Assembly: GCA_965224065.1 (NCBI GenBank) | Contig: CBDCYF010000005.1 | Coordinates: 3,691,087 to 3,755,086, forward strand | Reading direction: 5' to 3' | Length of the DNA stretch: 64,000 nt | Source of the DNA: Candidatus Multivoradales bacterium | Lineage (GTDB): Bacteria; Acidobacteriota; Thermoanaerobaculia; Multivoradales; JAHEKO01 | Shown here: piece by piece, positions 5,272 to 56,779 of the stretch | How positions within the stretch are numbered: position 1 is the first letter of the stretch | Layout: every line of letters begins with the position of its first letter | Translations under genes and position numbers: made by a program | The notes under the pieces: model-generated | What the model was told of the DNA's origin: nothing | The model's input: only the letters and a program-made list of their open reading frames with translations | Database searches by the model: none

Positions 5272-5292
5272 CCGCGGGTTGAAAAGGTCCGG

Positions 5293-7140: not shown

Positions 7141-7178
7141 CAAAAGACTACAATGCAGATCGTGGAGACAAGCTTGCC

Positions 7179-7827: not shown

Positions 7828-7879
7828 GGGCCGAGGCAAGCCCGGCCCCTACTGAAGCGGCCGCCGCCTCTGGCGGCCG
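7828..7879. repeat. Composite REP site: inverted GTAG-type REP abutting a TGAAG-type palindrome
   Basis: 7828-7852 reverse complement GTAGGGGCCGGGCTTGCCTCGGCCC; 7853-7879 TGAAGCGGCCGCCGCCTCTGGCGGCCG; relatives at 42959 and 39075. Confidence 0.7.
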
Positions 7880-12210: not shown

Positions 12211-12720
12211 ATGCCGATCCGACCCCATTCGCTGTCCCCGCGCGCTCTGCCGGCGATTCTGCTCGCTGCCGCTCTGGTGGGCGCATGCGGCGGGGGCTCG
12301 ACGCCGACCGCCCCGGCGGGCGGCGGCGCCGACGTGGAGCTCGCCACCTTCAAGCTGCTCAACACCTCGCGCATGGAGAGCGCCGGCGCGGCCCCGCTTC
12401 GGTTCAACGACCTGCTGGCCGAAGTGGCTCGCGGCCACAGCCGGGCGATGCGCGACCGGGGGTTTTTCAGCCACACCGATCCATCGGGCGACGGTTTGCG
12501 CGAACGTCTTCGCCGGGCCGGAGTGCAGTTCTCGGCCGCCGCCGAGAATCTGGTGCAGATCAGCAACCGCACCGACCCCGCGACCACCGCGCATCTCGAG
12601 CTGATGGCGAGCCCGGGTCACCGCGCCAACATCCTGGACCGGCGGTTTACCGAGGTCGGCGTGGGAATCGCGCAGCAGGGCGACAGCTACTGGGTCACCC
12701 AGGTTTTTGTAAGCCCCTAG
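12211..12720 (+). CDS. CAP (SCP) domain lipoprotein
   Basis: Lipobox VGAC; ARGHSRAM..FFSH, AENL, MASPGHRANIL, VGVG. Confidence 0.9.
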   Translation: MPIRPHSLSPRALPAILLAAALVGACGGGSTPTAPAGGGADVELATFKLLNTSRMESAGAAPLRFNDLLAEVARGHSRAMRDRGFFSHTDPSGDGLRERLRRAGVQFSAAAENLVQISNRTDPATTAHLELMASPGHRANILDRRFTEVGVGIAQQGDSYWVTQVFVSP

Positions 12721-12900
12721 CCTGAACTTTTCACCAGCGTCCGGCCCGAAGGCCGGAAATGTCTGAATCTACTGCGTTGCGCTCCCGTCGGGCTCCTCGA
12801 CGTAGCTACGGCTACGCCTGCGTCGCCCTCAGTCGCAAGCCTTGTATCTCCAGGCATTTGCGCCCTTCTGACTCGAACGCCGGTGAGAAGTTCAGGCTAG
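12717..12900. mobile_element. MITE-like element, copy 1 (184 bp)
   Basis: 24-bp terminal inverted repeats CTAGCCTGAACTTTTCACCAGCGT / ACGCCGGTGAGAAGTTCAGGCTAG (2 mismatches); homolog at 35468. Confidence 0.75.
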
Positions 12901-12907
12901 GCGGTCT

Positions 12908-35467: not shown

Positions 35468-35649
35468 CTAGCCTAATCTTCTCACCAAGAAACTACTGCG
35501 AAGCCGCAAATGCCTGAATCTGCTGCGTTACGCACCCGTCGGGCTCCTCAGCGTACCGACAGTACGCTTGCGTCGCCCTCGGTCGCAAGCCTTGCATCTT
35601 CGGACATTTGCGGCTTCTCGCGACGATTCCGGTGAGAAGATCAGGCTAG
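35468..35649. mobile_element. MITE-like element, copy 2 (182 bp)
   Basis: TIR CTAGCCTAATCTTCTCACC / GGTGAGAAGATCAGGCTAG (1 mismatch); core CCCGTCGGGCTCCTC..TGCGTCGCCCTC..GTCGCAAGCCTTG shared with copy 1. Confidence 0.75.
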
Positions 35650-38600
35650 CGCCAGTCACCGATCAGCTCGAACGCTGCCCAGTGAAAGGGTGCTCTCGTG
35701 GCTCTGTTGCCTTGAATGAGCTGAATCTGCGCTTCCCTCAGCGACTGGTCCTTGGTTCGGCCGGATTTGAGCTCGGTGTAGAACCGTGTCATGAGCTCCG
35801 TCGTAGAGCGGTCCGATACGCTCCAAAGCGAGGCCAGAACGGACCGTGCGCCCGCATACTGAAAAGCCCGAGCCAAACCGATCAATCCATCTCCGCCGAT
35901 TTCTTTTCCCAGCGCCGTCTGGCAGGCCGACAACGTCACCAGATCGGCATCGATGTTCAGTTTCTCGAAGATCTCCCACGCCTGGAGTAGACCGTTTTCC
36001 CGGCCCTGGCTTGCTCGGTCATCGAGGGCCAGAACCAGTGACGAATTGAGAGGAGCTTCCTCGTCGAGCACGCTATGGCTGGCAAAGTGGAGCATCCTGG
36101 CGTTACGGCCGATGACTGCGACCTGGTCCTCGGTAGCTTTTTCGCCGACAAAAATCTGAGCCTCTGAGCCCCAGAGTTTGGCGATGGCCCGAGCTTCCTC
36201 TCGGCTCTCCGGCAACGGACCGAGGGCGATTCCGCGATCGCCGGATAGAAAACCACGTAGTGCGTCGACCGGGATGCTGGACGAATCAGAGAGCCATTCG
36301 GCGGGCAGCGTCGGGTCCGCAAAGGCCGCGATCTGGATCGGCCACTTCGAACGGGCTTCTCGGCGCGATCGGGAAAGTTCTCCATAGACGGTGGCCGAGA
36401 TCACTCGGTGGAGCGGCTTCCATTCAACCAGATACTCGGTGGCCGGCTGTACCGGGTTCCCCGTGTCCCGGGCCAGAGCGGAAAAAGGCAGCGTGTGCAA
36501 AGGGCCGTCCGAGGAGATCAGGATACGTTCGGCGGACTCGATGGCGTCGGCTACCGGTGCGAGCAACAGTGCGAAAAGCGCCGCGCTCCGGGCTTGGAGC
36601 GCGGGCTCGACGTCCTCGTTGCGTCGGGAGCGCTCGATAAACGAGCGGAAAAGCGAGACTTCCCGCCTCAAGGCTTCTCGGCCGACGTCGATTCGAGTCA
36701 CCGAAAGGCCCAGCCCCGGGATTTCGGTTGGCTGCACGGCAAAGAGAAATGTCTCTTTTTCGGTTACCAGGTATGACAGAAGAAGAGTACCCGGGTCCAA
36801 GGCCCGCCGCGCCCGGCCAAGGTCGAACGGCTCGGGGTACTCCAGCGCAGCAAAACGAGGCGACTGTCGCCGAGCCGTGGTTTTCAGAAATTCGAGTCGG
36901 TTGCGAAGCTCTGTTTGGTGCTCGTGCAGCCGATCCACCTCGCCGGGTGAGCTCGTTGCGTTCAACGTGGCGAGCTGCGCTTGGGCACGGTCGTAGGCCC
37001 TCTCTATGTCCTTTCTTTCCTGCAGAAATTCTTTGGGAACTGCAGAATCGAAATCGAGTTCGCGCTCGGCCAGCAGGTTTAGCAAAGCACGGGCCCGGGA
37101 ACGCTCGACGATGTTGAAGGCATCGACAGGTCGTTCGAGCCCCAGGAGCGTGCTCGCCAATTGGTGGTAGTAGCCGAGATAGGCAGCGGCAAACTCGGCG
37201 CGCACTTCTTGCCGCCCACCCAACCGCTCGGTTTGTGCCTCCAGAGCATCGATGGCTTTCACCATCCAGTCGACCGCTTCACGGCGATCGCCACGGTCCA
37301 GTGCGATCTGGCCGAGTGCGAATAGGGACTCCGCCTCCTCAAATCGGCCTCGCAGGTACCTGCGGCGTATCTCGAGCGCTTGAAGGTGGAGGTCACGAGC
37401 CTCTTGGAGCGCGTCGCGCGACCGGGCCAGATTGCCGAGCTCGTAATAGCTTTCCGCGGTTTGTGGGTTTCCGGGCGTGTGGGCCTCGACGATCTCGATC
37501 GCACGTTTGTGAAGGGTTTCGGCCGTGGCGATCTTCCCTTGCCTGGAGGCGACAACGCCTAGGTTTTGGAGCGTAATGGCCTGGAAGGTAGTTCCCGGGA
37601 CGACCTTGTCTTGGATTGCAAGTGAGCGTTTCAACAAGGCTTCGGCCTCTTCGAGCTCACCTCGCTTGATCGCGAGGTCCGCGAGGTTATTCAGAACAAG
37701 CGCCACAGTCGGGCTTTCCGGACCGAGCTTCTCGTTGATCGCCAAGGCGCGCTTGTACAGCGTTTCCGCTGCCGGCAAATCTCCCCGGTCGCGCAGCACG
37801 ATTCCGAGACTGGTCGAGAGAGAGGCCACATTTCCACTCCCCGGGTGTCGAGCCTCGGCAACCGCTAGGGCCCGGCGGTAGTATTCTTCGGCTTCCACCA
37901 AGTTTCTGGTCGCGCGGGCCAAGGTGCCCAGGTTGCCGAGTGCGGTCTCCATGCCTCGGCTCTTTGGGGCGAGTTTCTCGACAATCGACAAGGCTCTCTC
38001 CGCGCGAGCTTCGGCCTTTTCATATGCCACTTCGCGTATCGCGACAAAGGCAAGATAGTTGAGCGAGTCGACGATCTCCAGGCCCTTCGGGGCCTTTTTT
38101 TCTTGAATCGCCAGCGCTTTTCCTATGAGTCTTTCGGCCTCACGGAACTCGCCGCGCCGAAGCGAGACCTGGCCCAGGGCCCGGAACGACTCGGCTGTGT
38201 TGAGCGATTCGGCGGACAGGCTTTGACGGATGGCGAGAGATCGGGTCAGTATCGTCTCGGCAATATCGAGTTGACCTCGCGCGCGGGCCAGCCTGCCGTG
38301 TGTTTCCAAGGCCATTGCCATCTCGGCTTCTGCCGAGCCGGCCGCTTGCCACATCTCCCCGGCTCGCTCGAACATGGCAGTGGCCTCGTCAAACCTCCTC
38401 CTACTCCTAAGCGCTCGACCTTGGTTGTAGCGGATATAGGCTTCGAGTCCGGCCCTGCCCGCGCCCGCGGCCATACTCGCGGCTTGCAAGAAGAGTTGTT
38501 CTGAGGCCTTCCACTTGGATGCCTTCGCCAACCGGGTCCCGGCCTGTTCGAGCAACCAGCAGGCCAGCTCGGTTTTATCCGATCTGCGGGCATCGAGCGC

Positions 38601-39017
38601 GAGCCGCTGGAGCTCCTCGACGCCTTCGTCAACGGCGCCGCTCTCGATCAAAGCCAGCGTTTCGCCGTAGATGCGGTCGGTTGGATGGTCGAGCATGGGG
38701 CGTGTCCTGATACCCCACAATCCACCGCGCAGCTCCACCACAAGCGGCTCGTCGTCTCGAAGTCCTTCGAAACGAACCCTGCCCCAAGCCGCCTCGAGCC
38801 TCCAAACATCGTAGGGTGATGCGAGAGGACTTGGATCGGCGTGTTCGCCCTCCTCTAGGCCACCGATAACGGTCGAAGACAAAAGCACATCGCCTGGTTT
38901 GAGCCCGGCCTGCTCGGCAACCCTGCCGGCCACGACGGTCTCGACCACCAGCATTGCGTCGCAGGGAGGCGCCAAACCCAGTACCGCCGCAGCGAATGTA
39001 AGCCTCACCCGTCTCAT
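35646..39017 (-). CDS. Secreted TPR-CHAT (caspase-like) protease with N-terminal PDZ-like segment
   Basis: Signal-like N-terminus, AEQAGLKPGDVL, TPR array, LHTLPFSAL, LHFASHS, LSACQT, ASLWSVSD, HWAAF. Confidence 0.88.
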   Translation of the reverse strand: MRRVRLTFAAAVLGLAPPCDAMLVVETVVAGRVAEQAGLKPGDVLLSSTVIGGLEEGEHADPSPLASPYDVWRLEAAWGRVRFEGLRDDEPLVVELRGGLWGIRTRPMLDHPTDRIYGETLALIESGAVDEGVEELQRLALDARRSDKTELACWLLEQAGTRLAKASKWKASEQLFLQAASMAAGAGRAGLEAYIRYNQGRALRSRRRFDEATAMFERAGEMWQAAGSAEAEMAMALETHGRLARARGQLDIAETILTRSLAIRQSLSAESLNTAESFRALGQVSLRRGEFREAERLIGKALAIQEKKAPKGLEIVDSLNYLAFVAIREVAYEKAEARAERALSIVEKLAPKSRGMETALGNLGTLARATRNLVEAEEYYRRALAVAEARHPGSGNVASLSTSLGIVLRDRGDLPAAETLYKRALAINEKLGPESPTVALVLNNLADLAIKRGELEEAEALLKRSLAIQDKVVPGTTFQAITLQNLGVVASRQGKIATAETLHKRAIEIVEAHTPGNPQTAESYYELGNLARSRDALQEARDLHLQALEIRRRYLRGRFEEAESLFALGQIALDRGDRREAVDWMVKAIDALEAQTERLGGRQEVRAEFAAAYLGYYHQLASTLLGLERPVDAFNIVERSRARALLNLLAERELDFDSAVPKEFLQERKDIERAYDRAQAQLATLNATSSPGEVDRLHEHQTELRNRLEFLKTTARRQSPRFAALEYPEPFDLGRARRALDPGTLLLSYLVTEKETFLFAVQPTEIPGLGLSVTRIDVGREALRREVSLFRSFIERSRRNEDVEPALQARSAALFALLLAPVADAIESAERILISSDGPLHTLPFSALARDTGNPVQPATEYLVEWKPLHRVISATVYGELSRSRREARSKWPIQIAAFADPTLPAEWLSDSSSIPVDALRGFLSGDRGIALGPLPESREEARAIAKLWGSEAQIFVGEKATEDQVAVIGRNARMLHFASHSVLDEEAPLNSSLVLALDDRASQGRENGLLQAWEIFEKLNIDADLVTLSACQTALGKEIGGDGLIGLARAFQYAGARSVLASLWSVSDRSTTELMTRFYTELKSGRTKDQSLREAQIQLIQGNRATRAPFHWAAFELIGDWR

Positions 39018-39168: not shown

Positions 39169-39930
39169 CTAGGCTTTCTTGCGCGTATAGACGAACCGGT
39201 CGTCGGTCGAGAGCTTGGGCTGGAACCGGTAGCCTTCAGCGCCGAAGTCCTTCAACCCTTCGGGCTCATCGACACGCTCGGTCACCACAAAGCGCGACAT
39301 CATCCCTCGAGCCTTCTTGGCCAGGAACCCGATGGTCTTGGGCCGGCCGTCGCGGATCTCCTGAAAAACCGCGGTCACCACCGGGGCCGACAGCCGGTCG
39401 AGCCGTGCCGCCTTTGCGTACTCGTTCGAAGCCAGGTTGAGAACGGCGTTGGGGCTCTCGGCGTTGAGGGAGTCGGCGATCCGCTCACCCCAGAAGGTGT
39501 AGAGGTCCTTGCCCCTGGCGGTGTCGAGGCGTGTGCCCATCTCCAGCCGGTAGGGCTGGATGAGGTCGAGCGGCCGCAGTAGACCGTAGAAGCCCGAGAG
39601 AATCCGAAAACGCCGCTGGGCCCAGTTGAGGTCCCGTTTGGAGAAGCTTCCCGCATCGAATCGCTTGTAGACATCGCCCTGGAAGGCCAGCAGACACGGC
39701 TTGGAGTTCTTGGGCGTGAATCGCGGGCTCATGTCCTGAAAACGCTCGTGGTTCAACTCGGCGAGCGGCTGGCTGAGCTTCATCAGTTTTTGGAGGGTCT
39801 TGACGTCGAGCTTCTTGCACCGCTTCAACAGGACCGCGATGTCGTCCTTGAACTGCGGCTGGGTGACGGCGAGGCCGTCCGGAGCCGGTGAAAAATCGAG
39901 CGTCTTGGCGGGGGAGAGTAGGGTCAGCAA
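39169..39930 (-). CDS. yaaA: Peroxide stress protein YaaA (DUF328)
   Basis: LLSPAKTLD, FQGDVY, LSGFYGLLRPLDLIQPYRLEMG, NLASNEY, AKKARG. Confidence 0.95.
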   Translation of the reverse strand: MLTLLSPAKTLDFSPAPDGLAVTQPQFKDDIAVLLKRCKKLDVKTLQKLMKLSQPLAELNHERFQDMSPRFTPKNSKPCLLAFQGDVYKRFDAGSFSKRDLNWAQRRFRILSGFYGLLRPLDLIQPYRLEMGTRLDTARGKDLYTFWGERIADSLNAESPNAVLNLASNEYAKAARLDRLSAPVVTAVFQEIRDGRPKTIGFLAKKARGMMSRFVVTERVDEPEGLKDFGAEGYRFQPKLSTDDRFVYTRKKA

Positions 39931-40057: not shown

Positions 40058-40672
40058 TCAAACGGGTGGCGATTCCGCCCGGTTGCGCCACAGCGCCGGG
40101 TCGACCACCTCCGCCATCTTGGCCACGTCCAGGTCGGCGCCGAGAAACTCTCGGATTTTCCGCGCCTGCTCCTCGGGCTCGGCCAGGAAGTCACGGTAGT
40201 GGAGCTCGGTCCAGTCGAAGTGAGCGCCGCGCTTGAGCTGGTAGCGCGCCCGCCACAAATCGGCCTCGAAGAGCTCGGTCATCCGGCCGTCGTCGGTCGC
40301 CGAGGCCTCGCCGCGCCGGTCGAGCATCTTGGCCTGCGAGGCCAGTACCTCTTCCATGTCGCGGCGGATAAAGAGGACCTGGTAGTTGTTGTCGGCGGGC
40401 AGGTCCTTGAGCAGATGGGAGATCACCTTGATCCCCTTGCCGCGCGCCGCTTTGAGCCAGGACTTGTCTTCCATCCGGCCCAGGTCCTTGACCCGCTCGT
40501 CCTCGAAATAGCCCTTGGGGTTGTCCTCGTCGGCGGTTCGCTCGCCGTCGGTGACCAGCGGCAGACCCCCCGCGGCCAGCATCTTCATCGCCATCGAAGT
40601 GCCCGAGCGGGGGAGCCCGGAGACGGTCACGATGGGGGCTCCATAGCGGAGCCGGCGCCAGAGGGAGGGCAT
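40058..40672 (-). CDS. Sulfotransferase-domain protein
   Basis: VSGLPRSGTS (5'-PSB-like loop), DNPKGYFE, RRDMEEVLASQ (3'-PB-like); ATG 40672. Confidence 0.8.
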   Translation of the reverse strand: MPSLWRRLRYGAPIVTVSGLPRSGTSMAMKMLAAGGLPLVTDGERTADEDNPKGYFEDERVKDLGRMEDKSWLKAARGKGIKVISHLLKDLPADNNYQVLFIRRDMEEVLASQAKMLDRRGEASATDDGRMTELFEADLWRARYQLKRGAHFDWTELHYRDFLAEPEEQARKIREFLGADLDVAKMAEVVDPALWRNRAESPPV

Positions 40673-42923
40673 GTGTTCTCTCGAGAAACGGGATAGACTT
40701 TGGGGTGCCGGGCCAGTGTGCCGCCGGCGTGTAAGTCGACTGAAGATCGTAGGATATCCCACCCTGAAACGCTCCACGCCGGGCCGCCGAAGCGCGTCCC
40801 TTTCCCTGTCTCTCCGTCTGGCCGTAGCCGCCGTTCTACTGGCGGGCACGGCCACGCCGGCCTTGGCCTACGTCGGCCCCGGGGCCGGTTTCGCGCTCGC
40901 CTCGTCCTTCTTCGCGGTCTTTCTGACCGTCCTGATCGCGGTTCTTGTGTTGCTGGTCTGGCCCTTCCGGAAGCTCTACCGGCTGATCCGGCGGGGGCGC
41001 AAGCCAAAGGCGCGGATCAAGCGGTTGATCGTCGTCGGCCTGGACGGCCAGGACCCCCGGTTGACCGACCGTTTTCTCAAAAAGGGCCTGCTGCCCAACT
41101 TCGAGAAGCTCGCCAAAGAGGGCTGCTACCTGCCGATCGCGACGACCTACCCGGCCATCTCGCCGGTGGCCTGGTCGTCTTTTTCGACCGGCACCGAGCC
41201 GGCCAAGCACAATATTTTTGATTTCTTGGCGCGCGACCCGAAGACGTATCTACCGGTGCTGTCGTCCACCGAGATCGGCAAGGTGGAGAAGTCGATCAAG
41301 CTGGGCAAGTTTCGGATTCCGCTCCACAAGCCCGAACTGCGGCTGCTGCGGCGTTCGAAGCCGTTTTGGACGCTCCTTGGCGAGCGTCAGATCTGGTCGA
41401 CGGTGCTGCGTGTCCCGATCACGTTCCCGCCGGACCGGTTCTACGGCGCCGAGCTCTCGGCGATGAGCGTTCCCGATCTGCTCGGAACCCAGGGTACGTT
41501 TTTGCTCTTCACCACCCGGCCGTCGGACGAGAAGTTCAAGGAAGGCGGGATGCGGATCCCGCTCCAGACGGTGAATGGCAACGGAAACGGCCATGCGGTC
41601 TACGGAGCCACCGTCGAGGGGCCGGGCAATGTCTTTGTCGATGGCGAGCCGCCGATGGAGCTTCCGGTCGAGATCGAGCTCGACCGCGCGGCCGGAACGG
41701 CACGGGTCTCGCTCAACGGGGATTCGGTCGATCTCGAGCCGGGGAAGCTCTCCGGCTGGGTGCCTCTCGAGTTTCCGGCCGCTTTTGGAGTCAAGGCGCA
41801 CGGGATCTGCCGGCTGATGATTACCGAGATGGACGAGCACTTCTCGCTCTACATGACGCCCATCAGTCTCGATCCGGGCAACCCGGCGATGCCGGTGTCG
41901 CACCCCGGCTACTACGCGACGTACCTCTCGAAGCTGATCGGCTCGTACTCGACCATGGGGCTGGCCGAAGACACCTGGGCGCTCAACGAGGACGTGGTGG
42001 ACGACGGGACGTTTCTCGAGATGGCCTATGACATCGACGGTGAGCGCCAGGAGATGTTCTTCGGCGCTCTCGAGCGGCTGCGCGAAGGCTCGCTGGTGTG
42101 CGTCTTCGACGGCACCGATCGCATCCAGCACATGTTCTGGCGCTACATGGAAGATGGCCACCCGGCGGCTCGCAACGAGAAAGACCCCGAGCACGCCGAC
42201 GCCATCGAGGAGCTTTACAAACACAACGACACGCTGGTCGGACGGGTGATGGAGAAACTTCGCCCCGGCGACATGATGATGGTGCTCTCGGATCACGGCT
42301 TTACGTCTTTTCGGCGCGGCATCAATCTGAACGCCTGGCTGCACGAGAACGGCTATCTGGCGCTCAAAGAGGGCTGCGACGGCACCAGCGAGTGGCTGCG
42401 CGACGTGGACTGGTCGCGCACGCGCGCCTACGCGCTCGGGCTCACCGGGGTGTTCTTGAACGTAAAGGGCCGCGAAGCCGAGGGGGTCGTCGAGCCCGGC
42501 GAGGAGGTCCAGGCGCTCAAACAGGAGTTGATCGAGAAGATGAGCGGGCTGGTGGACCCGGACCGGGACGAAGTCGGAATCAACGAGCTGTTCGACACCG
42601 CGGCGCTCTACCAGGGCCCCTATCTGACCAACGCGCCGGATTTCATCGTCGGGTACAACCACGGCTACCGCATCTCGTGGGACGGCGCCACCGGGGTGGT
42701 GACGGGACCGGTGTGGGAGGACAACACCAAGGCTTGGAGCGGCGACCACGGTGTCGACCCGAGGATCGTGCCCGGTGTCTTCTTTTGCAATCACAAGCTC
42801 GACCGCGACGACCCGGCGCTCGTCGACATCGCCCCGACCGCGCTCCGGCTCTTTGGCGTCCAGCCGCCGCCTCACATGGACGGACGCCCGCTTTTTGACG
42901 AAGGACGGACTTTCGATGCGTAA
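40671..42923 (+). CDS. Alkaline phosphatase superfamily (nucleotide pyrophosphatase/phosphodiesterase-like) protein A; true start probably about 90 nt downstream
   Basis: Signal ALA-YVGPGAG + TM; GLDG, PAISPVAWSSFSTG, DRIQH, SDHGF, SGDH. Confidence 0.85.
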   Translation: MCSLEKRDRLWGAGPVCRRRVSRLKIVGYPTLKRSTPGRRSASLSLSLRLAVAAVLLAGTATPALAYVGPGAGFALASSFFAVFLTVLIAVLVLLVWPFRKLYRLIRRGRKPKARIKRLIVVGLDGQDPRLTDRFLKKGLLPNFEKLAKEGCYLPIATTYPAISPVAWSSFSTGTEPAKHNIFDFLARDPKTYLPVLSSTEIGKVEKSIKLGKFRIPLHKPELRLLRRSKPFWTLLGERQIWSTVLRVPITFPPDRFYGAELSAMSVPDLLGTQGTFLLFTTRPSDEKFKEGGMRIPLQTVNGNGNGHAVYGATVEGPGNVFVDGEPPMELPVEIELDRAAGTARVSLNGDSVDLEPGKLSGWVPLEFPAAFGVKAHGICRLMITEMDEHFSLYMTPISLDPGNPAMPVSHPGYYATYLSKLIGSYSTMGLAEDTWALNEDVVDDGTFLEMAYDIDGERQEMFFGALERLREGSLVCVFDGTDRIQHMFWRYMEDGHPAARNEKDPEHADAIEELYKHNDTLVGRVMEKLRPGDMMMVLSDHGFTSFRRGINLNAWLHENGYLALKEGCDGTSEWLRDVDWSRTRAYALGLTGVFLNVKGREAEGVVEPGEEVQALKQELIEKMSGLVDPDRDEVGINELFDTAALYQGPYLTNAPDFIVGYNHGYRISWDGATGVVTGPVWEDNTKAWSGDHGVDPRIVPGVFFCNHKLDRDDPALVDIAPTALRLFGVQPPPHMDGRPLFDEGRTFDA

Positions 42924-45072
42924 GTACGGTTTGCTTCGGACCGTCGCCGAGTTCTGTTGTAGGGGCGGGGCTTGCCCCCGCCCGCGGCGGAGCGAAGCGC
43001 GGCATCGAAGTCTGGGCGGGGGCAAGCCCCGCCCCTACCAAAACATTGAAGCGGCCGGACCCGTGCCGGCCGATCGGGCCGGCGACTCTGCCGGCCGCCG
43101 TTGGGGCACTGCCTCTGGCGCTATCGCCACCCTCGCCCTGGCTGCCGTGGTCGCCTGCTCGGGTGGCTCCGGCTCGGGCTACAACGGCCCGCCGGTCATC
43201 GTGCTGGGCTTCGACGGCATGGACTACGGTCTGACGCGCCAGTTGATGGCCGAGGGGCGTATGCCCAATTTCACCCGTCTCGCCGAGCAGGGAAGCTTTG
43301 GCCCGCTCGGCACGGCGGTGCCGCCGCAGAGCCCGGTGGCCTGGTCCAACTTCATCACCGGGCAAGACTCGGGTGGCCACGGCATCTTCGATTTCGTGCA
43401 CCGGGAGCCCGACACCCTGGCGCCTTACTTCTCGACCAGCCGGGCGGAGGACCCCAAGACCCTGAAGATCCTCGCCTGGGAGATCCCGATGGGCGGCGGC
43501 AGTGTGGAGCTCCTTCGCAGGGGCCAGGAGTTCTGGGAGATCCTCGAGCAGAACGGCGTGGAGAGCCACATTTACCGGATGCCCGCCAACTATCCGCCCT
43601 CGGGGACCGCCACCCGCGAGCTCTCGGGGATGGGTACACCGGATCTTCTGGGCTCGGCAGGAACGTTCTCGTTCTACACCTCGGATCTTTTTGTCAGCGA
43701 GGACTCGGTGGATGGGGGCGACATCTATCCGGTGGATCTCTGGGACAACAAGATCGAAGGCGAGCTCTATGCCGGCGCCGGCGGCAGGGCCGACCGGTTT
43801 GCCACCGATTTCTCGGCCTACATCGATCCCGAGACCGGCTGGGTCGAGCTGGTGATCGAGGACAACGGCGAGAAGCGCCTGTTGAAGGTCGGGGAGTGGA
43901 GCGACTGGGTCCCGATCGACTTCAAGCTCTCGGCCGTGACCGAGGTGCGCGGGATGGCCCGTTTTCTGGTCCAGAGCCTCGACCCCGAGTTCGAGCTCTA
44001 TGTCTCGCCGATCAACATCGACCCGATGAAGCCCGAACAGCCGATCTCGACTCCCGACGACTTTGCCGCCGAGCTGGCTCGCGCCACCGGACGCTTCTAC
44101 ACCCAGGGCATGATGGAAGACACCAAGGCGCTCACCGCCGAGGTCTTTTCCTATGAGGAGTTTCTGGCCCAGGCCAAGATCGCCGGCGACGAGATCCTCG
44201 AGCAGTACGAGCATGTGCTGGCCGACTTTGGCGGCGACTTTCTCTTTTACTACTTCGGCAACCTCGACCAGGTCTCGCACATGATGTTTCATACGCTCGA
44301 CCCCGAGCACCCGGCCTACGACCCGGAGGTCGACGGTCCCTACGCCGACTCGGTGCCGTCGATCTACGAAGAGTTCGATGGCATCGTCGGTTATACCCTC
44401 GACAACATGCCCGAGGACGCCCGGTTGATCGTCATGTCCGACCACGGGTTTGCGAGCTGGCGGCGCACGTTTCACTTGAACACCTGGCTGGCCCAAGAGG
44501 GCTATCTCGTGCTCAAGGACCCGGGCCTCGCCAAGAGCAACATCTACTCGAACGTCGACTGGTCCAAGACCCGGGCTTACGGTCTTGGGCTAAACGGCCT
44601 TTACATCAATCTCGCCGGGCGGGAGCCGGACGGCAGCGTGCGGCCGGAGGACTTCAACAAGGTCGCCGACGATTTGGCGCGGGAGCTTCTGGCCGTCGTC
44701 GACCCGGCGACCGGGCAACCGGCGATCACCAAGGTCTACCGCGCCGACCGGACTTACCGGGACTCGGAGTATCTTGCGATCGGACCCGACCTCCAGGTGG
44801 GCTACGCCAAGGGGGTCCGCTGCTCGGGCAGTTCGGCGCTCGGGGACATTCAGACCGAGGTGATTACGGACAACACAGACGGCTGGGGCGGCGACCACTG
44901 CATGGATCACGAAACCGTTCCCGGGATTCTTTTGACCAACGTCGAGCTCGAACGCCCCGCCACCGATCTGCTCGGGCTCTCGGCCACGGTTCTGGCCGAG
45001 TTCGGGATCGACACCGAGGACACCAATACCGCGGGCTCGGGCGGTACCGCTACCGTGGCTTCCGGAGGATAG
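42916..45072 (+). CDS. Alkaline phosphatase superfamily protein B, probable lipoprotein (start ATG 42916 or GTG 43063)
   Basis: Lipobox VVAC-SGG; GFDG, PPQSPVAWSNFITG, DQVSH, SDHGF, GGDH; paralog of protein A. Confidence 0.85.
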   Translation: MRKYGLLRTVAEFCCRGGACPRPRRSEARHRSLGGGKPRPYQNIEAAGPVPADRAGDSAGRRWGTASGAIATLALAAVVACSGGSGSGYNGPPVIVLGFDGMDYGLTRQLMAEGRMPNFTRLAEQGSFGPLGTAVPPQSPVAWSNFITGQDSGGHGIFDFVHREPDTLAPYFSTSRAEDPKTLKILAWEIPMGGGSVELLRRGQEFWEILEQNGVESHIYRMPANYPPSGTATRELSGMGTPDLLGSAGTFSFYTSDLFVSEDSVDGGDIYPVDLWDNKIEGELYAGAGGRADRFATDFSAYIDPETGWVELVIEDNGEKRLLKVGEWSDWVPIDFKLSAVTEVRGMARFLVQSLDPEFELYVSPINIDPMKPEQPISTPDDFAAELARATGRFYTQGMMEDTKALTAEVFSYEEFLAQAKIAGDEILEQYEHVLADFGGDFLFYYFGNLDQVSHMMFHTLDPEHPAYDPEVDGPYADSVPSIYEEFDGIVGYTLDNMPEDARLIVMSDHGFASWRRTFHLNTWLAQEGYLVLKDPGLAKSNIYSNVDWSKTRAYGLGLNGLYINLAGREPDGSVRPEDFNKVADDLARELLAVVDPATGQPAITKVYRADRTYRDSEYLAIGPDLQVGYAKGVRCSGSSALGDIQTEVITDNTDGWGGDHCMDHETVPGILLTNVELERPATDLLGLSATVLAEFGIDTEDTNTAGSGGTATVASGG
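42959..43038. repeat. GTAG-type REP inverted doublet (REPIN-like)
   Basis: GTAGGGGCGGGGCTTGCCCCCGCCC (42959-42983) and perfect inverted copy (43014-43038), 30-bp spacer. Confidence 0.85.
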
Positions 45073-45074
45073 AG

Positions 45075-45269
45075 ATGTTTGGCTACGTCAAAATCAAGCT
45101 CGAAAAGGACCTGGTCTCCAAGATCAAGCGCTATTCCGACATCGCTGGTTACTCCTCGCCGGAGGAGTTCATCACCCATGCGCTCGAGAAGGAGCTGGCC
45201 AAGCTGGCCGACGCCGGGAGCGAGGAGGAGATCAAGAAGAGGTTGCAGGGGCTCGGGTATATCTCATGA
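45075..45269 (+). CDS. 64-aa protein, ribbon-helix-helix-like with C-terminal RLQGLGYI motif
   Basis: VKIKLEKDL..GYSSPEEFITHALEKEL; GGAGG RBS; ends EEIKKRLQGLGYIS. Confidence 0.8.
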   Translation: MFGYVKIKLEKDLVSKIKRYSDIAGYSSPEEFITHALEKELAKLADAGSEEEIKKRLQGLGYIS

Positions 45270-45396
45270 CCGTGCGTCGATCGCACGCCATCTCGACCCG
45301 TCCTCGCTGCCTCGGGCCCTGCGTCGTACACGGCGTACGCCTCGGGCCCTCGTCGCTGCGGGTGGGCCGATCTGGCGCGTGCTTGACGCACGGTCA
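45267..45396. repeat. 130-bp long hairpin element
   Basis: TGACCGTGCGTCGA / TTGACGCACGGTCA termini; apical CGTAC-ACGGC-GTACG like MITE copy 2. Confidence 0.65.
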
Positions 45397-45448
45397 CTCT
45401 GTGGCGACATCAACGATCGATGGATCAACCCTTGCCACCAATGCCCTT

Positions 45449-45473
45449 GTAGGGGCGGGGCTTGCCCCCGCCC
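45449..45473 (+). repeat. GTAG-type REP, single copy
   Basis: Identical 25-mer to 42959-42983. Confidence 0.85.
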
Positions 45474-45498
45474 GTCTTCCCCGGATCCCCGCTAGCCC

Positions 45499-46329
45499 AT
45501 GACCCTTCTCAACACAGCCTTTCGGTCATTCTTCGATCTGCTGCTCAAGCCCTTTGAGGGTTTCTCGCCCTGGGCGGGGCTGTTGTTTGTATCGCTGTTG
45601 TCGGCGGTGGCGGCGCTCCTGGTCTACAAGCGGGTCTCCAACCAGGACGCCATCGAGCGGGTCAAGAACCGTATGCAGGCCTCGCTGTTCGAGATCCGGC
45701 TCTTCAACGACGACCTGCGGGCCATCCTGCGCGCGCAGGCCGGCTTTCTGATGGGCAACCTGCGGTACCTGGCGCTCAACCTGGTGCCTCTTCTCTGGTT
45801 GATCATCCCCTTTGTTTTGGTGTTCGTGCATCTCGAGCCGCGCTATCGCAACCAGGGGCTGGATGTTGGCGCGCCGGCCCTTCTCGAAGTCGAGATGGAC
45901 AAAGGGACGAGTGGCCGGCCCGAGCTGGAGCTCGATCTGCCCGCCGAGCTTCGCGCCGAGTCACCCGCCGTATGGCTCTCGGGAGCTCGCACGATGGCCT
46001 GGCGACTGGCCACCGATCGCCCTGGCGCCTACGAGATCGATCTGCAGTCCGGCGGTGAGGTTCACGACAAGGAGATCCGGTTCAATGGCCGCACCGAGCT
46101 CTTCTCGGCCGAGCGTCCGGCGAAGGGCTTACTCGCCCAACTCGCCCAGCCCGCCGAGAAGCCGATGCCGTCAGACGGCGGCATCGCCGCCATCCGCGTG
46201 AGCTACCCCGAGCGCTCCTGGGGCACGGTGCCGGGTACCGACATCAAGATTGCCTGGTGGTTTTGGTGGCTGGTACTGATGGTGGCCTTCGGGCTGGTGC
46301 TGCGCCGCCCGATGGGCGTGCAGATCTAG
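45499..46329 (+). CDS. Membrane protein, DUF106/EMC3/TMCO1-like architecture
   Basis: Amphipathic helix-TM1-coiled coil (YKRVSNQDAIERVKNRMQ)-TM2 (LVPLLWLIIPFVLVF)-beta domain-TM3 (WWFWWLVLMVAFGLVLRRPMGV). Confidence 0.55.
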   Translation: MTLLNTAFRSFFDLLLKPFEGFSPWAGLLFVSLLSAVAALLVYKRVSNQDAIERVKNRMQASLFEIRLFNDDLRAILRAQAGFLMGNLRYLALNLVPLLWLIIPFVLVFVHLEPRYRNQGLDVGAPALLEVEMDKGTSGRPELELDLPAELRAESPAVWLSGARTMAWRLATDRPGAYEIDLQSGGEVHDKEIRFNGRTELFSAERPAKGLLAQLAQPAEKPMPSDGGIAAIRVSYPERSWGTVPGTDIKIAWWFWWLVLMVAFGLVLRRPMGVQI

Positions 46330-46372
46330 CTTGCATCCTGCACCCGGGAACGCCCCGGTTAAACTCGGGTTA

Positions 46373-46828
46373 GTGAGTTCCTTTGCCTATGGCGGCGCCG
46401 AGGCGTTGGTAGCGCTGCACGAGAAACACCTTCGGGAGTTCCTGGGTGTTTGGCGTGAAGCCGACCGGGTCGGAGTCGACCTGCCCGAGACGTCGGACCC
46501 AAGCTACGCCTCTCGCGAGGCCTTGCTGGCCCATGTATTGGGGTGCGCGGCCCGGTATCTGAGCTGGATCTGCGAGCAATTGGAACTGCCGTCTCCCGGC
46601 CTCGAGGAGTACCCGGATCCAGGGTCCCTTTCCGACCGAGCCGACTGCTATCTCGAGGAGATTTTTGAAGCCTGGGGTGGGTCGCTCCGATCTCTTACCG
46701 AAGAGCGTGCCTACGAGCCCGCACACGTTTCCCGGTGGGGACCGCCGTATTGCGTCGACGCCATGATGGAACACGCGGTCATGCACCCCATCCGGCATAC
46801 CCATCAGCTCAGGGCGCTCCTTGGCTAG
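46373..46828 (+). CDS. DinB/YfiT-like four-helix protein
   Basis: LLAHVLG and EHAVMHPIRHTHQL histidine pattern. Confidence 0.7.
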   Translation: MSSFAYGGAEALVALHEKHLREFLGVWREADRVGVDLPETSDPSYASREALLAHVLGCAARYLSWICEQLELPSPGLEEYPDPGSLSDRADCYLEEIFEAWGGSLRSLTEERAYEPAHVSRWGPPYCVDAMMEHAVMHPIRHTHQLRALLG

Positions 46829-48761: not shown

Positions 48762-50255
48762 CTAGGGCTCGTTCGCGGTGCCGTCACTTTGCTCTTGCGC
48801 GATGGCGGCCGCGAGGGTCTCGAAATCCTCCGCCGCGAGGTCCAGCGTGCTGAACCCGTCGCTGACGAAGGCTCGCTCGAGCCCATAGCGGTCGTGTAGG
48901 AACTGAAACACCTGCAGGTCGTTGGCGCTGGGAGCCGCCAGCGCAAGCCATCCACGCTCGGAATTCAGCTCAAAGGTGTGGTTGTGGAAGGTTCCCCACA
49001 GCCGCCAGCCCGCTGCCAGGTCTGTTTCGATCGCCTGGAGAGCGTGGGTCGGTTTGGGCGGGATCGGATCGCCGTCTGCGGCCATATAGACCTTGATCCG
49101 GGCCTCTTCACCTTCTCCTCGCCGCAGGACCAACGTCACGATCTCGGTCGGCTGCTCGAAAAGCGGGAAGCGTGACGCCTGGTAGCCGAGCGTCTGGCTT
49201 TCGAGGCAGCTCATCGGTCGGTGCCGCCCCACCGTTCCGGACTCGATCGCCCGGTTGATCGCCCGCTCGGCCGGGTGCTCGCGCTCGAGCCACGAGAACA
49301 TCCGGCGGTTGGCCTGAATCAAGCCGAGCGGACCGACATCGCCCACGGCCTCGCGAGCTCGGGACCGGTAGTGGATCAGAGCCGGGTGGTCCGCCGGCGC
49401 TGACCCCCACAGGCCGGGGTGGTCCACCAGGGTCCAGACCTGGTGCAGCTCGGGGCCGTCGCGGTGCTGGACCATCGCACCGGCGCGCCGCAGAGCGTTT
49501 GGATCGGCGCATTCGAGGCTTGTGACATCCGGTTTGCCCCGTTCCCCCGGGCGCTCGACGGCGTATTGAATTGTTGGGTCGGGCCACTCGATCACCATGC
49601 CTCGGGCCACACCCTGCGCGACCTTCTCGCCGTAAAGGTAGTCGACCAGGTGCATCGCCACGTCGTAGCTTCGCGCCCCGCCCTGCGATGTCAGCGCCCT
49701 GCCGTCGTGGACAAAACTGACACCCCGCCGCACGTCGAGATGCGGGAACATCTCTTCGTACCGATCGAGATCGCCCGGAAAGGTCGTGCTGGCCACGTCG
49801 TCGAGAAGCTCCGCCGCCGCCAGGACGAACGCGCCGTCGCAGAGCGAAACCAGGTAGTCTGCTTCGGCTCCCACCTCGCGCACCCAAGTCATCATGGCCT
49901 CGTCCTCGAGGTCGCTGTCCATCGAGTGCTCGGCGCTCGGCACGACGAGGACGTCGATCGTCGGCGCGTTCCCGAAGCTGTAGTGGGCGCCGATCTCGAT
50001 GCCCTCGAAGCTCGTCACCGGCTTGCCGTCGGGGGAGACGATAAAGAGTTCCATCCCCGGGTCGGTGTGAAAGACCGTGTGATGAAAGATGTCGTAGGGT
50101 GCGATCAGCTCGCTGTTGTAGACGCCGTCGACGACCAGAAAACCGACCCGCAGTGGAGCCGGCTCACCGGCCGCTAGGGGCACGGGCGCCAGGAACAAGG
50201 GCGTCCAGAGAAATGACGCCAGGAACAAAGCAGGGGCTAGCAGACGGCGCGGCAT
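48762..50255 (-). CDS. Exported DJ-1/PfpI family protein fused to an unknown C-terminal domain
   Basis: Signal peptide; DVLVVPS, VSLCDGAFVLAAAELLD, LTSQG; C-terminal FHNH...PSAND. Confidence 0.8.
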   Translation of the reverse strand: MPRRLLAPALFLASFLWTPLFLAPVPLAAGEPAPLRVGFLVVDGVYNSELIAPYDIFHHTVFHTDPGMELFIVSPDGKPVTSFEGIEIGAHYSFGNAPTIDVLVVPSAEHSMDSDLEDEAMMTWVREVGAEADYLVSLCDGAFVLAAAELLDDVASTTFPGDLDRYEEMFPHLDVRRGVSFVHDGRALTSQGGARSYDVAMHLVDYLYGEKVAQGVARGMVIEWPDPTIQYAVERPGERGKPDVTSLECADPNALRRAGAMVQHRDGPELHQVWTLVDHPGLWGSAPADHPALIHYRSRAREAVGDVGPLGLIQANRRMFSWLEREHPAERAINRAIESGTVGRHRPMSCLESQTLGYQASRFPLFEQPTEIVTLVLRRGEGEEARIKVYMAADGDPIPPKPTHALQAIETDLAAGWRLWGTFHNHTFELNSERGWLALAAPSANDLQVFQFLHDRYGLERAFVSDGFSTLDLAAEDFETLAAAIAQEQSDGTANEP

Positions 50256-54558: not shown

Positions 54559-56730
54559 TCACGGCGCCGGCTGGTTTCCGGTGACCCGGGCCAGAAGAGA
54601 CTCGGCAAGTGCGGCTTCTTGCGGCTCCAATTCTTCCCGGTAGCGTTCCAGTGCGGTGCGGAGATTGCCCAGCGCCGAGGCGGCGTTTCCGGACGTGAGC
54701 TGAACCACGGCTAGTGCGATGAAGTGCTTCCCTGCCGGCTCGATGGCCAGACCGCGCTCGAACAACTCGGCGGCGCGGCTCAAATTTCCGCTCACGCTGT
54801 GAACGGCCGCTGCCTTGAAGAGTTGCTCGGGATTGCGAGCCAGATCCCCGGTCGCGTCCAGGCGGTCATAGATGGCTAACGCTTTCAGGTGCTCGCCTTG
54901 CTTTGCGCTGATCTCGGCAATCTTGATCTCGAGGGGAACGCTGCGCGGCTCTTGGGCGAGGGCTCTTTCGAAGTACTCGACGGCGTGGTCGAGTTCACCG
55001 CGGCTCTCGGCGATCATGCCGAGTAGGCTCAAGGCGTGGGAAAGACGCGGGTCTCGTTCGAGGATCTTGCGGGCCTCGCGCTCGGCGTCGTCGAGACGTC
55101 CGATCAGGTGCAGATAGGAGGCCAGCTTTATCCGGATCGTGCTGAGCGGCAGCTTTTCGATGCCTTGCTCGAGGGCCGAGATCGCACCTCTTTGGTCTCC
55201 GAGCTGAGAGCGGATCTCGAAGTCGATCTCGTAGAAATCGATCACCTCGACGTCTTCGAACTCCCGCCGTACTTCAGCCAGCAGGGCCTGGGCTTGTTCG
55301 AGCTGCCCGGTTCTAGCCAAGTCGCGGACATTTCGCGCCTTCATCTCGATCTGGATGCCCCGTTTCGGGTCGATCATCCGGTCGGTAGCGCCACCACCTG
55401 ACAAATAGCCCAGCGCTTCCAGCTGCCGCCGGTCTTCGGCGTTGAGCTCGCGCTCGGCGTCGGGTACCTCGCCAACACTCAGTAGCAGGTTTCGGAGCTG
55501 GCGGTCGAGTGCCCGCGTCCGGTCGCGGTGGTCGGAGGCCAAATCCTGCAGCTCACCGGGGTCCCGTTCGAGGTCGTAGAGCTCCGGTTGCGGCAGCCGA
55601 ATGTACTTGTAGCCGTCTGAGATCACGCCGGCGCGCGGCGCCCAGTTCTTCTCGTGCATACCGGCCTGGCTTTCGAAGTAGAGAGCGGGTTCGACCGACC
55701 CCGGAGGAAAACCCGTGGGTGCCGGGCCCACCGCCCGAGGGAGTAGGGGCTCGAGGCTCCGGCCTTGGAGCCCGGCCGGAGCAGACAGGGCAAAGAGCTC
55801 GGAGATCGTCGGGGTGAAATCCACCAGACCAACTCGAGTGTCCACCACTGACTCCACCGCCAGCCGTCCCGGTGCGACCACCAGGAACGGTACGCGCAGC
55901 GTCTCGTCATACGTCAAAAGCCCGTGTCCGTGCTCGACGTGTTCGCCAAAGGCCTCACCGTGGTCGGCGGTGACCACCACCACGGTGTTCTCCGTGACAC
56001 CGTGGCCGTCTAGCGCTTCGAGCACATGGCCGACCTCTCGGTCGACATACGCAATCTCGCCATCGTAGAGGTTGTCGGCGAACTTCAGGTCGAAGGGTGG
56101 GGGCGGTTCATATGGTTGATGTGCGTCGTAAAAGTGCAGCCAGGCAAAAAAAGGCCGGTCTTCCTGCCGGGCGAGCCAGTCCGAGAAGCGTCGCGACACC
56201 TCTTCGGCAGGCGTCTCACTGTGGAAACGAAACAGGGTGTCCTCGGTGGCGAGCGAGTCATCATAAGTGTCAAACCCCTGCGCCAGCCCAAACTTCTCAA
56301 GCAGCACGTAGGCCGAGACAAAGGCGCCGGTGGAGTAGCCGTTGGCCTTGAACAACTCGGCCAGAGTGACCTCTTCCTCGCGCAAAAAGTGCATGCCGTT
56401 GATGCGTACGCCGATGGCGAACGGGTAAAGCCCAGTGAAGAGAGTCGAGTGGCTGGGAAGGGTCAGGGGAACAGGCGAATAGGCGTTTTCGAATCGGACC
56501 CCCCGCTTGGCCAGGCGATCCAGGTTCGGGGTCGTGCCCCGTGGGTAGCCGTACGCCCCAAGCCGGTCCGCCCGTACGGTATCGAGCGTGATGACCAACA
56601 GGTTGCTTCCGGCGAGGTCAAGTGCCTCGGCGTTTTTCGATTGCTGGGAGCTCGAGCCACAGCCGGCGACGCTCCAGGCGAAGGCCGTCACCAGAACCGC
56701 GACCCGGGAGGTCGAAGAGATCGGCCGCAT
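54559..56730 (-). CDS. Sulfatase-like hydrolase + TPR lipoprotein
   Basis: ITLDTVRAD, PLTLPSHSTLFTG, HFYDAH, ADHGE, ELYDL, QLEALGY, TPRs; lipobox VAGC. Confidence 0.88.
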   Translation of the reverse strand: MRPISSTSRVAVLVTAFAWSVAGCGSSSQQSKNAEALDLAGSNLLVITLDTVRADRLGAYGYPRGTTPNLDRLAKRGVRFENAYSPVPLTLPSHSTLFTGLYPFAIGVRINGMHFLREEEVTLAELFKANGYSTGAFVSAYVLLEKFGLAQGFDTYDDSLATEDTLFRFHSETPAEEVSRRFSDWLARQEDRPFFAWLHFYDAHQPYEPPPPFDLKFADNLYDGEIAYVDREVGHVLEALDGHGVTENTVVVVTADHGEAFGEHVEHGHGLLTYDETLRVPFLVVAPGRLAVESVVDTRVGLVDFTPTISELFALSAPAGLQGRSLEPLLPRAVGPAPTGFPPGSVEPALYFESQAGMHEKNWAPRAGVISDGYKYIRLPQPELYDLERDPGELQDLASDHRDRTRALDRQLRNLLLSVGEVPDAERELNAEDRRQLEALGYLSGGGATDRMIDPKRGIQIEMKARNVRDLARTGQLEQAQALLAEVRREFEDVEVIDFYEIDFEIRSQLGDQRGAISALEQGIEKLPLSTIRIKLASYLHLIGRLDDAEREARKILERDPRLSHALSLLGMIAESRGELDHAVEYFERALAQEPRSVPLEIKIAEISAKQGEHLKALAIYDRLDATGDLARNPEQLFKAAAVHSVSGNLSRAAELFERGLAIEPAGKHFIALAVVQLTSGNAASALGNLRTALERYREELEPQEAALAESLLARVTGNQPAP

Positions 56731-56779
56731 GATCTCTATAGTCTTCGTCGCGGGGTCATCCGGACCTCTGGCACGGTTG

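Follow-up and report, generated by a model that had tools for sequence, protein, structure and literature searches.

Introduction

Oxa1-family proteins classically insert N-out helices whose translocated tails are short, as well as hairpins of the procoat type; M13 procoat is a hairpin client that depends on YidC, and Cox18 is a family member that is dedicated to a single substrate, Cox2. Within the alkaline phosphatase (AlkP) superfamily, the nucleotide pyrophosphatases/phosphodiesterases (NPPs) are typically extracytoplasmic enzymes, and transferases of the LtaS/EptA/OpgB type work through a covalent Ser/Thr intermediate. Passages of PMC5868721 and PMC8887752 describe DUF106 proteins as archaeal and eukaryotic, and a passage of bioRxiv 10.1101/2020.12.20.422553 treats the form with three transmembrane (TM) helices as 'archaeal YidC'; bacterial members of the family might nevertheless be found in homolog lists such as S2 Data of PMC8887752. 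This study concerns a cluster of five genes at positions 40058-46329 of a 64,000-nt stretch of DNA (the window) from Candidatus Multivoradales bacterium (assembly GCA_965224065.1, contig CBDCYF010000005.1), which encodes a putative sulfotransferase that would use 3'-phosphoadenosine-5'-phosphosulfate (PAPS), two paralogous enzymes of the AlkP superfamily (AlkP-A and AlkP-B), a microprotein, and a membrane protein related to archaeal Ylp1 (DUF106).

The original prediction for this locus had proposed a relay in which these proteins move sulfate or phosphoryl groups across the inner membrane onto envelope substrates. The comparative analysis reported here finds that the gene set is a real and widely conserved membrane-associated module, and that the strongest and most specific couplings within it are those between AlkP-A, the microprotein and the Ylp1-like protein. 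Tentatively, and with the balance still close to even, the Ylp1-like protein is read as a dedicated insertase or membrane partner of AlkP-A, with head-group chemistry accompanying it.

Results

Among 251 genomes sampled from the phylum of the window, the membrane protein was found in 74 and an AlkP-A ortholog (E<=1e-150) in 73, and a comparison of the two per-genome tables gave 70 genomes with both genes, four with the membrane protein only, three with AlkP-A only, and 174 with neither. Of the seven genomes with one gene only, six are 75-83% complete, and the remaining one, G112, carries a truncated AlkP-A. Where both genes occur, they mostly lie within ~5 kb of each other on one contig (63 of 70 genomes). 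The counts for the membrane protein, AlkP-A and the sulfotransferase (see below) include one unpublished genome, G049, which is positive for all three; leaving it out lowers each positive count and the genome total by one.

The arrangement of the genes was read by tblastn with the window proteins in a set of related loci. A scan of one genome per species had yielded 565 AlkP-A-encoding stretches, of which the best 80 were retrieved with flanks of up to 10 kb. Their common order is a divergent sulfotransferase followed by AlkP-A, usually AlkP-B, the microprotein and the membrane protein. Both of the last two genes were present in all 55 loci that extend at least 4.5 kb beyond AlkP-A, and AlkP-B in 46 of these 55. 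Among the carriers are metagenome-assembled genomes labelled as Vicinamibacteria, Holophagae, Gemmatimonadota, Methylomirabilota, Planctomycetota/Phycisphaera, Spirochaetia, Dadabacteria and Eiseniibacteriota; such labels may be imprecise. Conservation of the gene neighbourhood had been named as a check on the original prediction, and the genes indeed co-occur, across phyla in the related loci and within the phylum of the window in the 251 genomes. Clustering of all open reading frames (ORFs) in the 80 loci revealed no further universally conserved neighbour. AlkP-A itself has many relatives (7895 at E<=0.001 among 8000 candidates scored), of which the best 120 are 66-100% identical and come from sources named Thermoanaerobaculia, Acidobacteriota and Gemmatimonadota.

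Two apparent gene fusions were rejected. A 1292-residue protein (P0003) looked like a fusion of AlkP-A and AlkP-B, and consists of AlkP-A up to residue ~583, an unmatched stretch, and a complete AlkP-B with its own signal, and was taken as a frameshifted gene call; an ORF at 12299-13312 of locus L070 resembled a fusion of microprotein and membrane protein, loses similarity after the microprotein tail and was likewise read as a frameshift. In G112, a complete genome (locus L081, G112:C1:2345000-2357000, ~4500-7460), only residues ~54-284 of AlkP-A match, at 53% identity, and this truncated gene lies directly upstream of an intact-looking AlkP-B, microprotein, membrane protein and sulfotransferase; the copy may be decaying or rearranged.

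In the window, the ORF listing and family scans placed all five genes where the original prediction had them, as one divergent sulfotransferase gene and four co-oriented genes, with the following features:

40058-40672, minus strand: putative PAPS-type sulfotransferase, 204 residues (PF13469), divergent from the other four genes
40716-42923, plus strand: AlkP-A, NPP-type (PF01663), 735 residues from GTG 40716, or 750 residues if started at ATG 40671
40869-40889, plus strand: YVGPGAG codons, between the AxA site and the TM helix of AlkP-A
40890-41024, plus strand: predicted TM helix of AlkP-A (26 apolar residues), then a strongly basic stop-transfer stretch
41160-41162, plus strand: codon of the predicted nucleophile of AlkP-A, Ser164 of the 750-residue ORF, in SPVAWS
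42959-43038: inverted pair of a 25-nt, GC-rich palindromic element resembling repetitive extragenic palindromes (REP-like), between AlkP-A and AlkP-B
43063-45072, plus strand: AlkP-B, predicted lipoprotein, 669 residues from GTG 43063 (PF01663), with the Cys codon of its lipobox VVAC at 43156-43158
45075-45269, plus strand: microprotein, 64 residues, similar to CopG/ribbon-helix-helix (RHH) proteins, beginning 2 nt past the AlkP-B stop
45449-45473, plus strand: third exact copy of the REP-like element, in the gap between microprotein and membrane protein
45499-46329, plus strand: membrane protein, 276 residues, Ylp1/DUF106 homolog with an immunoglobulin (Ig)-like insert

The start codons of the sulfotransferase and AlkP-A overlap or abut. 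For the five proteins, the PADLOC models of anti-phage defence systems gave no family and NCBIfam no usable one, with a PhnA match to the AlkP enzymes falling far below threshold. The window copies of the microprotein and the membrane protein match no Pfam or NCBIfam family by themselves.

The assignment of AlkP-A as a predicted NPP-fold, two-metal enzyme with a Ser/Thr nucleophile, carried on a procoat-like N-terminal hairpin, is well supported by family profiles, alignments and a structural model. The protein matches PF01663 with 102 bits against a cut-off of 23, and only ATG 40671 or GTG 40716 remain as in-frame starts. Its N-terminus runs from a hydrophobic, signal-peptide-like stretch through ALA and YVGPGAG to 26 apolar residues and a basic stretch; this layout, already described in the original prediction, turned out to be general among the best 120 homologs. 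Y[VI]GPGAG was found in 117 of them, the distance from the motif to the first Lys or Arg is exactly 26 residues in 117 homologs, and the net charge of the 20 residues that follow has a median of +9 and a minimum of +4 (117 homologs). Small residues occupy positions -3 and -1 in all 108 homologs with at least 15 residues upstream, and a hydrophobic stretch precedes them in 107 of these. Because of the positive-inside rule, the catalytic domain is predicted to lie in the cytoplasm with only the heptapeptide outside, whether the signal peptide is cleaved or not.

No stretch of AlkP-A is more conserved than the heptapeptide. Six of its seven columns are invariant among the 34 A-type sequences of an enzyme alignment (57 sequences, the other 23 being B-type), and its mean majority-residue fraction is 0.95, whereas the catalytic core reaches 0.75-0.78; conservation of this kind speaks against a passive role as an anchor. 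The back-translated motif occurs once in the 4.1-Mb genome. In the same alignment, the nucleophile position is occupied by Ser in 30 and by Thr in four A-type sequences and by Ser in all 23 B-type sequences, the columns of the two-metal ligands (Asp, Asp/His pairs, His; roles assigned from their position in family motifs) are invariant or nearly so, and the P, W, H and D residues flanking the nucleophile are invariant. The earlier claim that both enzymes keep the metal ligands and a Ser at the nucleophile position thus extends to the family, with Thr as the variant in the four A-type members.

The AlphaFold model of AlkP-A (pLDDT 92.1) shows a long N-terminal helix (residues 16-54), an AlkP-type core and a beta-rich insert of ~200 residues. 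Searched with Foldseek, this model matched Xanthomonas NPP best (E 2.8e-12, target-normalised TM-score 0.62-0.63), and further fold matches were to ENPP1/3/6/7, PhnA and SPAP, at 10-13% identity. Against the PDB, phmmer returned nothing for AlkP-A and a profile search returned weak partial matches; with no solved or curated close relative, the substrate is unreadable from homology. The genome as a whole holds 37 PF01663-type matches.

The membrane protein is well supported, by profile homology and a structural model, as a putative extra member of the Oxa1 superfamily, of the archaeal type with three TM helices, and its earlier description as 'insertase-like' now has real homology to archaeal Ylp1/DUF106 behind it. 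A profile built from a 36-sequence alignment of the family matched Mj0480 (PDB 5c8j) with E 2.3e-11 and 46.9 bits, profile positions 10-122 aligning to residues 11-127. The match spans the N-terminal helix, TM1, a cytoplasmic helical hairpin and TM2, and a weak second match falls on the last TM helix. Mj0480 was the only membrane protein among the four PDB matches, the other three being filamin domains that matched the insert. PF01956 (EMC3_TMCO1) was matched by eight of the 36 family members at E<=1; in a re-scan of ten relatives (nine of the 36 and L083), five matched at E<=0.1, of which L073 scored above the cut-off of 27.1 bits, with 30.5, and the remaining four had 13.5-18.7 bits. JGI names many homologs 'DUF106 family', so the homology was already within reach of automatic annotation.

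The AlphaFold model of the membrane protein (pLDDT 94.6) has helices at residues 24-46, 49-68, 73-116 and 253-268, in the order N-terminal amphipathic helix, TM1, helical hairpin, TM2, a beta-sandwich of ~130 residues, and the last TM helix. Foldseek gave weak filamin-type Ig matches to the insert and nothing for the helical core. Over the 36 sequences, the loop carries a net charge of +3.7, the Ig domain one of -5.0 and the C-terminal tail one of +1.6, values that fit the topology of Ylp1. The predicted topology, drawn from model and charges, is N-out with a cytoplasmic hairpin, a periplasmic Ig domain and a C-in tail. A canonical YidC is encoded elsewhere in the genome.

In an alignment of 35 microproteins, the 34 copies from other loci are 52-84% identical to the window copy and the mean column identity is 71%. 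The protein consists of an RHH-like domain, an acidic linker and a C-terminal LxGLGY(I/M/L)(S/E) motif; the AGY-S turn and LxGLGY are invariant, as are Tyr26 and Tyr62. Of nine sequences scanned against RHH_1 (PF01402), one homolog reached 21.1 bits against a cut-off of 20.5 and four others stayed below threshold, while the window copy gave no match; the nearest clusters in the Atlas are automatically named 'putative CopG family transcriptional regulator'. Searching 1.84 billion representatives with the microprotein profile returned 303 clusters at E<=1e-10, nearly all of which are 60-70 residues long or match at their extreme C-terminus, and the long proteins that end in a microprotein are probably, as in L070, open upstream frames in GC-rich DNA. 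The microprotein carries neither a leader nor an export signal, and its gene is present in a single copy in the genome.

That AlkP-B is an exported paralog of AlkP-A, a lipoprotein or a secreted protein, is well supported as a prediction from its signal features. It matches PF01663 with 122 bits against a cut-off of 23 and is 32% identical to AlkP-A in the 57-sequence alignment. The likely start, GTG 43063, lies just past the repeat element and gives a 32-residue signal with a basic n-region and a hydrophobic stretch, ending in the lipobox VVAC (judged by eye). The lipobox of the original prediction was therefore found, and most orthologs carry one, with some signal-peptidase-I type signals and one twin-arginine-like signal among the rest (by eye). 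Taken together, the charges and signals place the two paralogs, by prediction, on opposite faces of the membrane, as had been proposed. No counterpart of AlkP-B was found in nine of the 55 loci, all of which keep AlkP-A, the microprotein and the membrane protein. In locus L083 (G187:C9:70000-82000, positions 3308-6288), a B-type paralog with the twin-arginine-like signal KRREF adjoins the microprotein and the membrane protein, and the best AlkP-A match of that genome is on another contig; the L083 microprotein is 39% identical to the window copy and keeps the C-terminal GLGYIS.

The sulfotransferase matches PF13469 (E 4e-11, 44 bits against a cut-off of 27), and PF00685 with 18.8 bits, below its cut-off of 22; a PDB search gave no informative match. 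A longer ORF that starts at a GTG and reaches 40855 was considered and rejected, since homologs support ATG 40672 as the start. Near the N-terminus lies SGLPRSGTSM, which I take to be the PAPS-binding loop and which is visibly conserved in the homolog N-termini displayed. Homologs are 48-69% identical and, among the 69 loci with at least 1.5 kb upstream of AlkP-A, lie divergently within 1.5 kb of AlkP-A in 50 and anywhere in the locus in 56. In the sampled phylum, a sulfotransferase (E<=1e-25) was present in 61 of 251 genomes, namely 51 of the 77 with the system and ten of the 174 without it. In ~30 of the 51 carriers it is near the cluster, and in 11 genomes, G049 among them, it stands directly 3' of the membrane protein gene on the same strand (confirmed by tblastn in G136 and G112). 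Two gene orders thus keep the sulfotransferase genetically coupled to the cluster, which argues for a functional link; its absence from one third of carriers suggests that it is not essential to the core.

The suggested connection to PAPS also gained some ground, in that PAPS-metabolism-like genes recur nearby in some loci. By eye, ATP-sulfurylase-like ORFs were named in 13, sulfatase-like ORFs of ~690 residues in 13, and CysQ-like ORFs in nine of the 80 loci; among distant loci, L072 has an APS-kinase-like (adenosine-5'-phosphosulfate kinase-like) ORF within the cluster and L075 an ATP-sulfurylase-like ORF ~6 kb off. Distant loci carry extra PF01663 proteins, and in L077 and L078 membrane-anchored PF00884 proteins stand beside the cluster, which presumably resemble LtaS/EptA-type transferases.

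The spacing of the genes in the window is affected by the REP-like element. Exact 25-nt copies lie at 42959-42983(+), 43014-43038(-) and 45449-45473(+), all in gaps of the cluster, and a diverged copy with three mismatches at 7828-7852(-), with no copies expected by chance (100 shuffles). In other loci, AlkP-B and the microprotein are separated by a median of 13 nt, and the microprotein and the membrane protein by one of 16 nt, which is operon-like; the unusually long gaps in the window are due to the local insertion of these elements. A promoter scan found no promoter-like site and a terminator scan mostly intragenic sites, which was uninformative.

Several neighbours of the cluster were noted. 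Directly past the sulfotransferase, 39169-39930(-) encodes a homolog of the peroxide stress protein YaaA (PF03883 E 2.6e-83, NF002542 above cut-off), which was not found beside the cluster in the 80 related loci. On the other side, a 165-residue ORF at 46331-46828(+) begins 2 nt past the membrane protein stop, matches DinB below threshold (16.5 bits against 23) and has no counterpart in the related loci. Farther off are a 1123-residue ORF that is TPR-rich by eye (35646-39017(-)), a 497-residue DJ-1/PfpI-domain protein (48762-50255(-)) with a 67%-identical stretch beyond the sulfotransferase in L014 (8162-8737), and a 752-residue protein with a Sulfatase (PF00884) domain followed by TPR repeats (54559-56817(-)).

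Discussion

Since inserting short-tailed N-out helices is classical Oxa1-family work, a dedicated insertase or partner is the most economical reading of the Ylp1-like protein. It would insert the N-out anchor of AlkP-A and probably stay with it as a lasting membrane partner, and insertion would place the short Y[IV]GPGAG end in the periplasm and the enzyme on the cytoplasmic face. AlkP-A and AlkP-B would then cleave or transfer phosphodiester-type, possibly sulfo-ester, head groups of membrane-proximal substrates, each on its own side, while the sulfotransferase would make or modify a cytoplasmic substrate and the microprotein might regulate the operon or serve as an adaptor of the enzyme. A complex prediction with AlkP-A residues 16-673, the membrane protein and the microprotein returned 'no answer', which counts neither for nor against binding.

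Several observations weigh against this reading. The signal peptide of AlkP-A looks cleavable, so Sec and YidC might insert the hairpin in the ordinary way, with no need for a special factor. Adjacency to AlkP-A is not universal, as the best AlkP-A match lies on a different contig in seven of the 70 genomes with both genes, and in G187 the gene adjoining the microprotein and the membrane protein encodes an exported B-type paralog. The window membrane protein itself has no PF01956 match, and there is none in the whole genome at E<=10. The sulfotransferase lies away from the cluster in ~21 of the 51 system-positive genomes that have it, and was not found with the window query in 26 of the 77 system-positive genomes. 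An operator search in 56 intergenic/N-terminal regions between the sulfotransferase and AlkP-A gave no candidate; the most frequent 7-10-mers there are GC-rich and read as Ala/Gly codons, and with no conserved operator-like word there is no support for the microprotein as a repressor. A dedicated insertase also leaves the periplasmic Ig domain, the invariance of the heptapeptide and the role of the microprotein unexplained.

The genes could instead encode independent, co-regulated hydrolases, in which case AlkP-A and AlkP-B would be ordinary phosphodiesterases, for example in phosphorus scavenging or lipid head-group turnover, under a CopG-like repressor, with the Ylp1-like protein as a general accessory insertase for many clients and the sulfotransferase merely in the same regulon. 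AlkP-superfamily genes are abundant in this genome (the 37 PF01663-type matches and the sulfatase-TPR gene at 54559-56817), the further PF01663 and PF00884 genes beside the cluster in distant loci would fit, as would the resemblance of the microprotein to CopG-type regulators, and some loci do without AlkP-B or the sulfotransferase. A general insertase, however, is not expected to track one enzyme in the way observed here, with both genes in 70 of 77 genomes and adjacent in 63 of those 70. An anchor heptapeptide that exceeds the catalytic core in conservation and is unique in the genome is likewise hard to reconcile with independent hydrolases, and the identity of the microprotein across phyla, together with the missing operator word, would be unusual for a repressor whose operator can drift freely. 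On this evidence, independent, co-regulated hydrolases appear unlikely.

Other explanations retain a closer role for sulfate. In a vectorial pathway, the sulfotransferase and AlkP-A would load a sulfated or phosphodiester-linked head group onto a lipid carrier at the cytoplasmic face, a Ylp1-like scramblase or flippase would move the lipid, and the periplasmic AlkP-B would transfer the head group to an envelope acceptor. The predicted placement of paralogous enzymes on opposite faces with an Oxa1-family protein in the same operon speaks for such a route, as do the coupling to the sulfotransferase and to PAPS-metabolism-like genes and the membrane-anchored PF00884 proteins of L077 and L078. Against it stand the loss of AlkP-B (nine of 55 loci) and the 26 of 77 genomes in which no sulfotransferase was found, the lack of any conserved lipid-carrier or glycosyltransferase gene in the set (ORF clustering, 80 loci), the fact that no transferase activity is known for this PF01663 clade, and the inability of a covalent Ser intermediate itself to cross the membrane. 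The missing genes make an obligatory route from the sulfotransferase through AlkP-A to AlkP-B unlikely, so the relay of the original prediction is weakened in that form and survives only as the lipid-linked pathway, which is itself quite improbable. It is similarly improbable that the archaeal-type YidC homolog acts as a scramblase or conduit, and not (only) as an insertase, joining a cytoplasmic NPP-like enzyme to its periplasmic paralog; if this were true, a PAPS-made sulfated or phosphodiester-linked group would reach an envelope lipid or polymer in Acidobacteriota, Gemmatimonadota, Planctomycetota and others. Finally, the microprotein might be the substrate: the sulfotransferase would sulfate, or AlkP-A would modify, one of its invariant Tyr residues, in AGYSS or the C-terminal GLGY, and the product would serve as a signal or be passed to the membrane protein. 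Tyr sulfation of a peptide by a bacterial sulfotransferase has a precedent in RaxST and RaxX, and the invariance of Tyr26, Tyr62 and the whole C-terminal tail, and a gene always directly 5' of that of the membrane protein, would suit this role. The microprotein is kept, however, in all loci and genomes without the sulfotransferase, it has neither a leader nor a signal for export, and the first two thirds of its sequence resemble a folded RHH domain, all of which makes a substrate role very improbable.

None of the parts of the module lies outside known families, and DUF106 is already suggested by database annotation. What appears to be new is the combination, together with the pairing of a bacterial archaeal-type YidC and one candidate client, the anchor heptapeptide and the tie to sulfation. 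Neither these features nor the cluster as a whole turned up in the literature searches, in agreement with the earlier statement that the gene set was undescribed. The module places an archaeal-type three-TM DUF106/Ylp1 protein of the Oxa1 superfamily in many bacteria, where one obvious candidate for a client stands beside it. The choice of clients by Oxa1-family insertases is an open question, and a pair of one insertase and one client that can be transferred to E. coli would make it directly testable. The module is also common, being present in ~30% of the sampled genomes of the phylum, with thousands of metagenomic homologs and carriers in several other phyla, and its link to a PAPS sulfotransferase points to an unknown sulfate- or phosphodiester-linked chemistry of the membrane or envelope in abundant, mostly uncultured soil and sediment bacteria. 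Y[IV]GPGAG, which stands above the active-site core in conservation and would, by prediction, be all that a large cytoplasmic enzyme exposes to the periplasm, is so far unexplained.

Comparison with known systems

The microprotein compares best with the CopG/Arc/MetJ group of RHH regulators and with RHH antitoxins whose C-terminal tails bind a partner, to which its weak RHH_1 matches, its size and its G-x-S turn, presumably an RHH feature, would fit. It differs from these proteins in its very strong conservation across phyla, its invariant LxGLGY tail and the lack of an operator in the regions searched.

With the NPPs (Xanthomonas NPP, ENPP1/3/6/7) and PhnA, AlkP-A has PF01663, an NPP-like fold, the metal ligands and the Ser/Thr nucleophile in common, yet it is only 10-13% identical to them, carries its own beta-rich insert of ~200 residues, and is predicted to be cytoplasmic and membrane-anchored. 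The transferases of the LtaS/EptA/OpgB type, to which the original prediction had likened the enzymes, share the superfamily and the chemistry of a covalent Ser/Thr intermediate; they belong to PF00884 and have a multi-TM N-domain, whereas AlkP-A and AlkP-B are PF01663, NPP-like proteins, the former with one TM helix after its signal peptide and the latter with none. Both enzymes are outside the LtaS/EptA-type group.

The N-terminal hairpin of AlkP-A resembles M13 procoat, the client of YidC, in its signal peptide, short translocated loop, TM helix and basic cytoplasmic side, and the idea of a specialised Oxa1-family paralog for a single client is common to Cox18 and Cox2. In contrast to both pairs, the candidate client here is a 680-residue cytoplasmic enzyme of which only ~7 residues would be translocated, and the putative partner is of the archaeal three-TM type. 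That partner is closest to Ylp1/Mj0480, on the branch of EMC3, TMCO1 and Get1, with which it shares profile homology and the same three-TM, N-out, C-in layout. Compared with Ylp1, the protein of this cluster is bacterial, stands beside a canonical YidC, carries a predicted periplasmic Ig-like domain of ~130 residues, and is tied to one enzyme gene.

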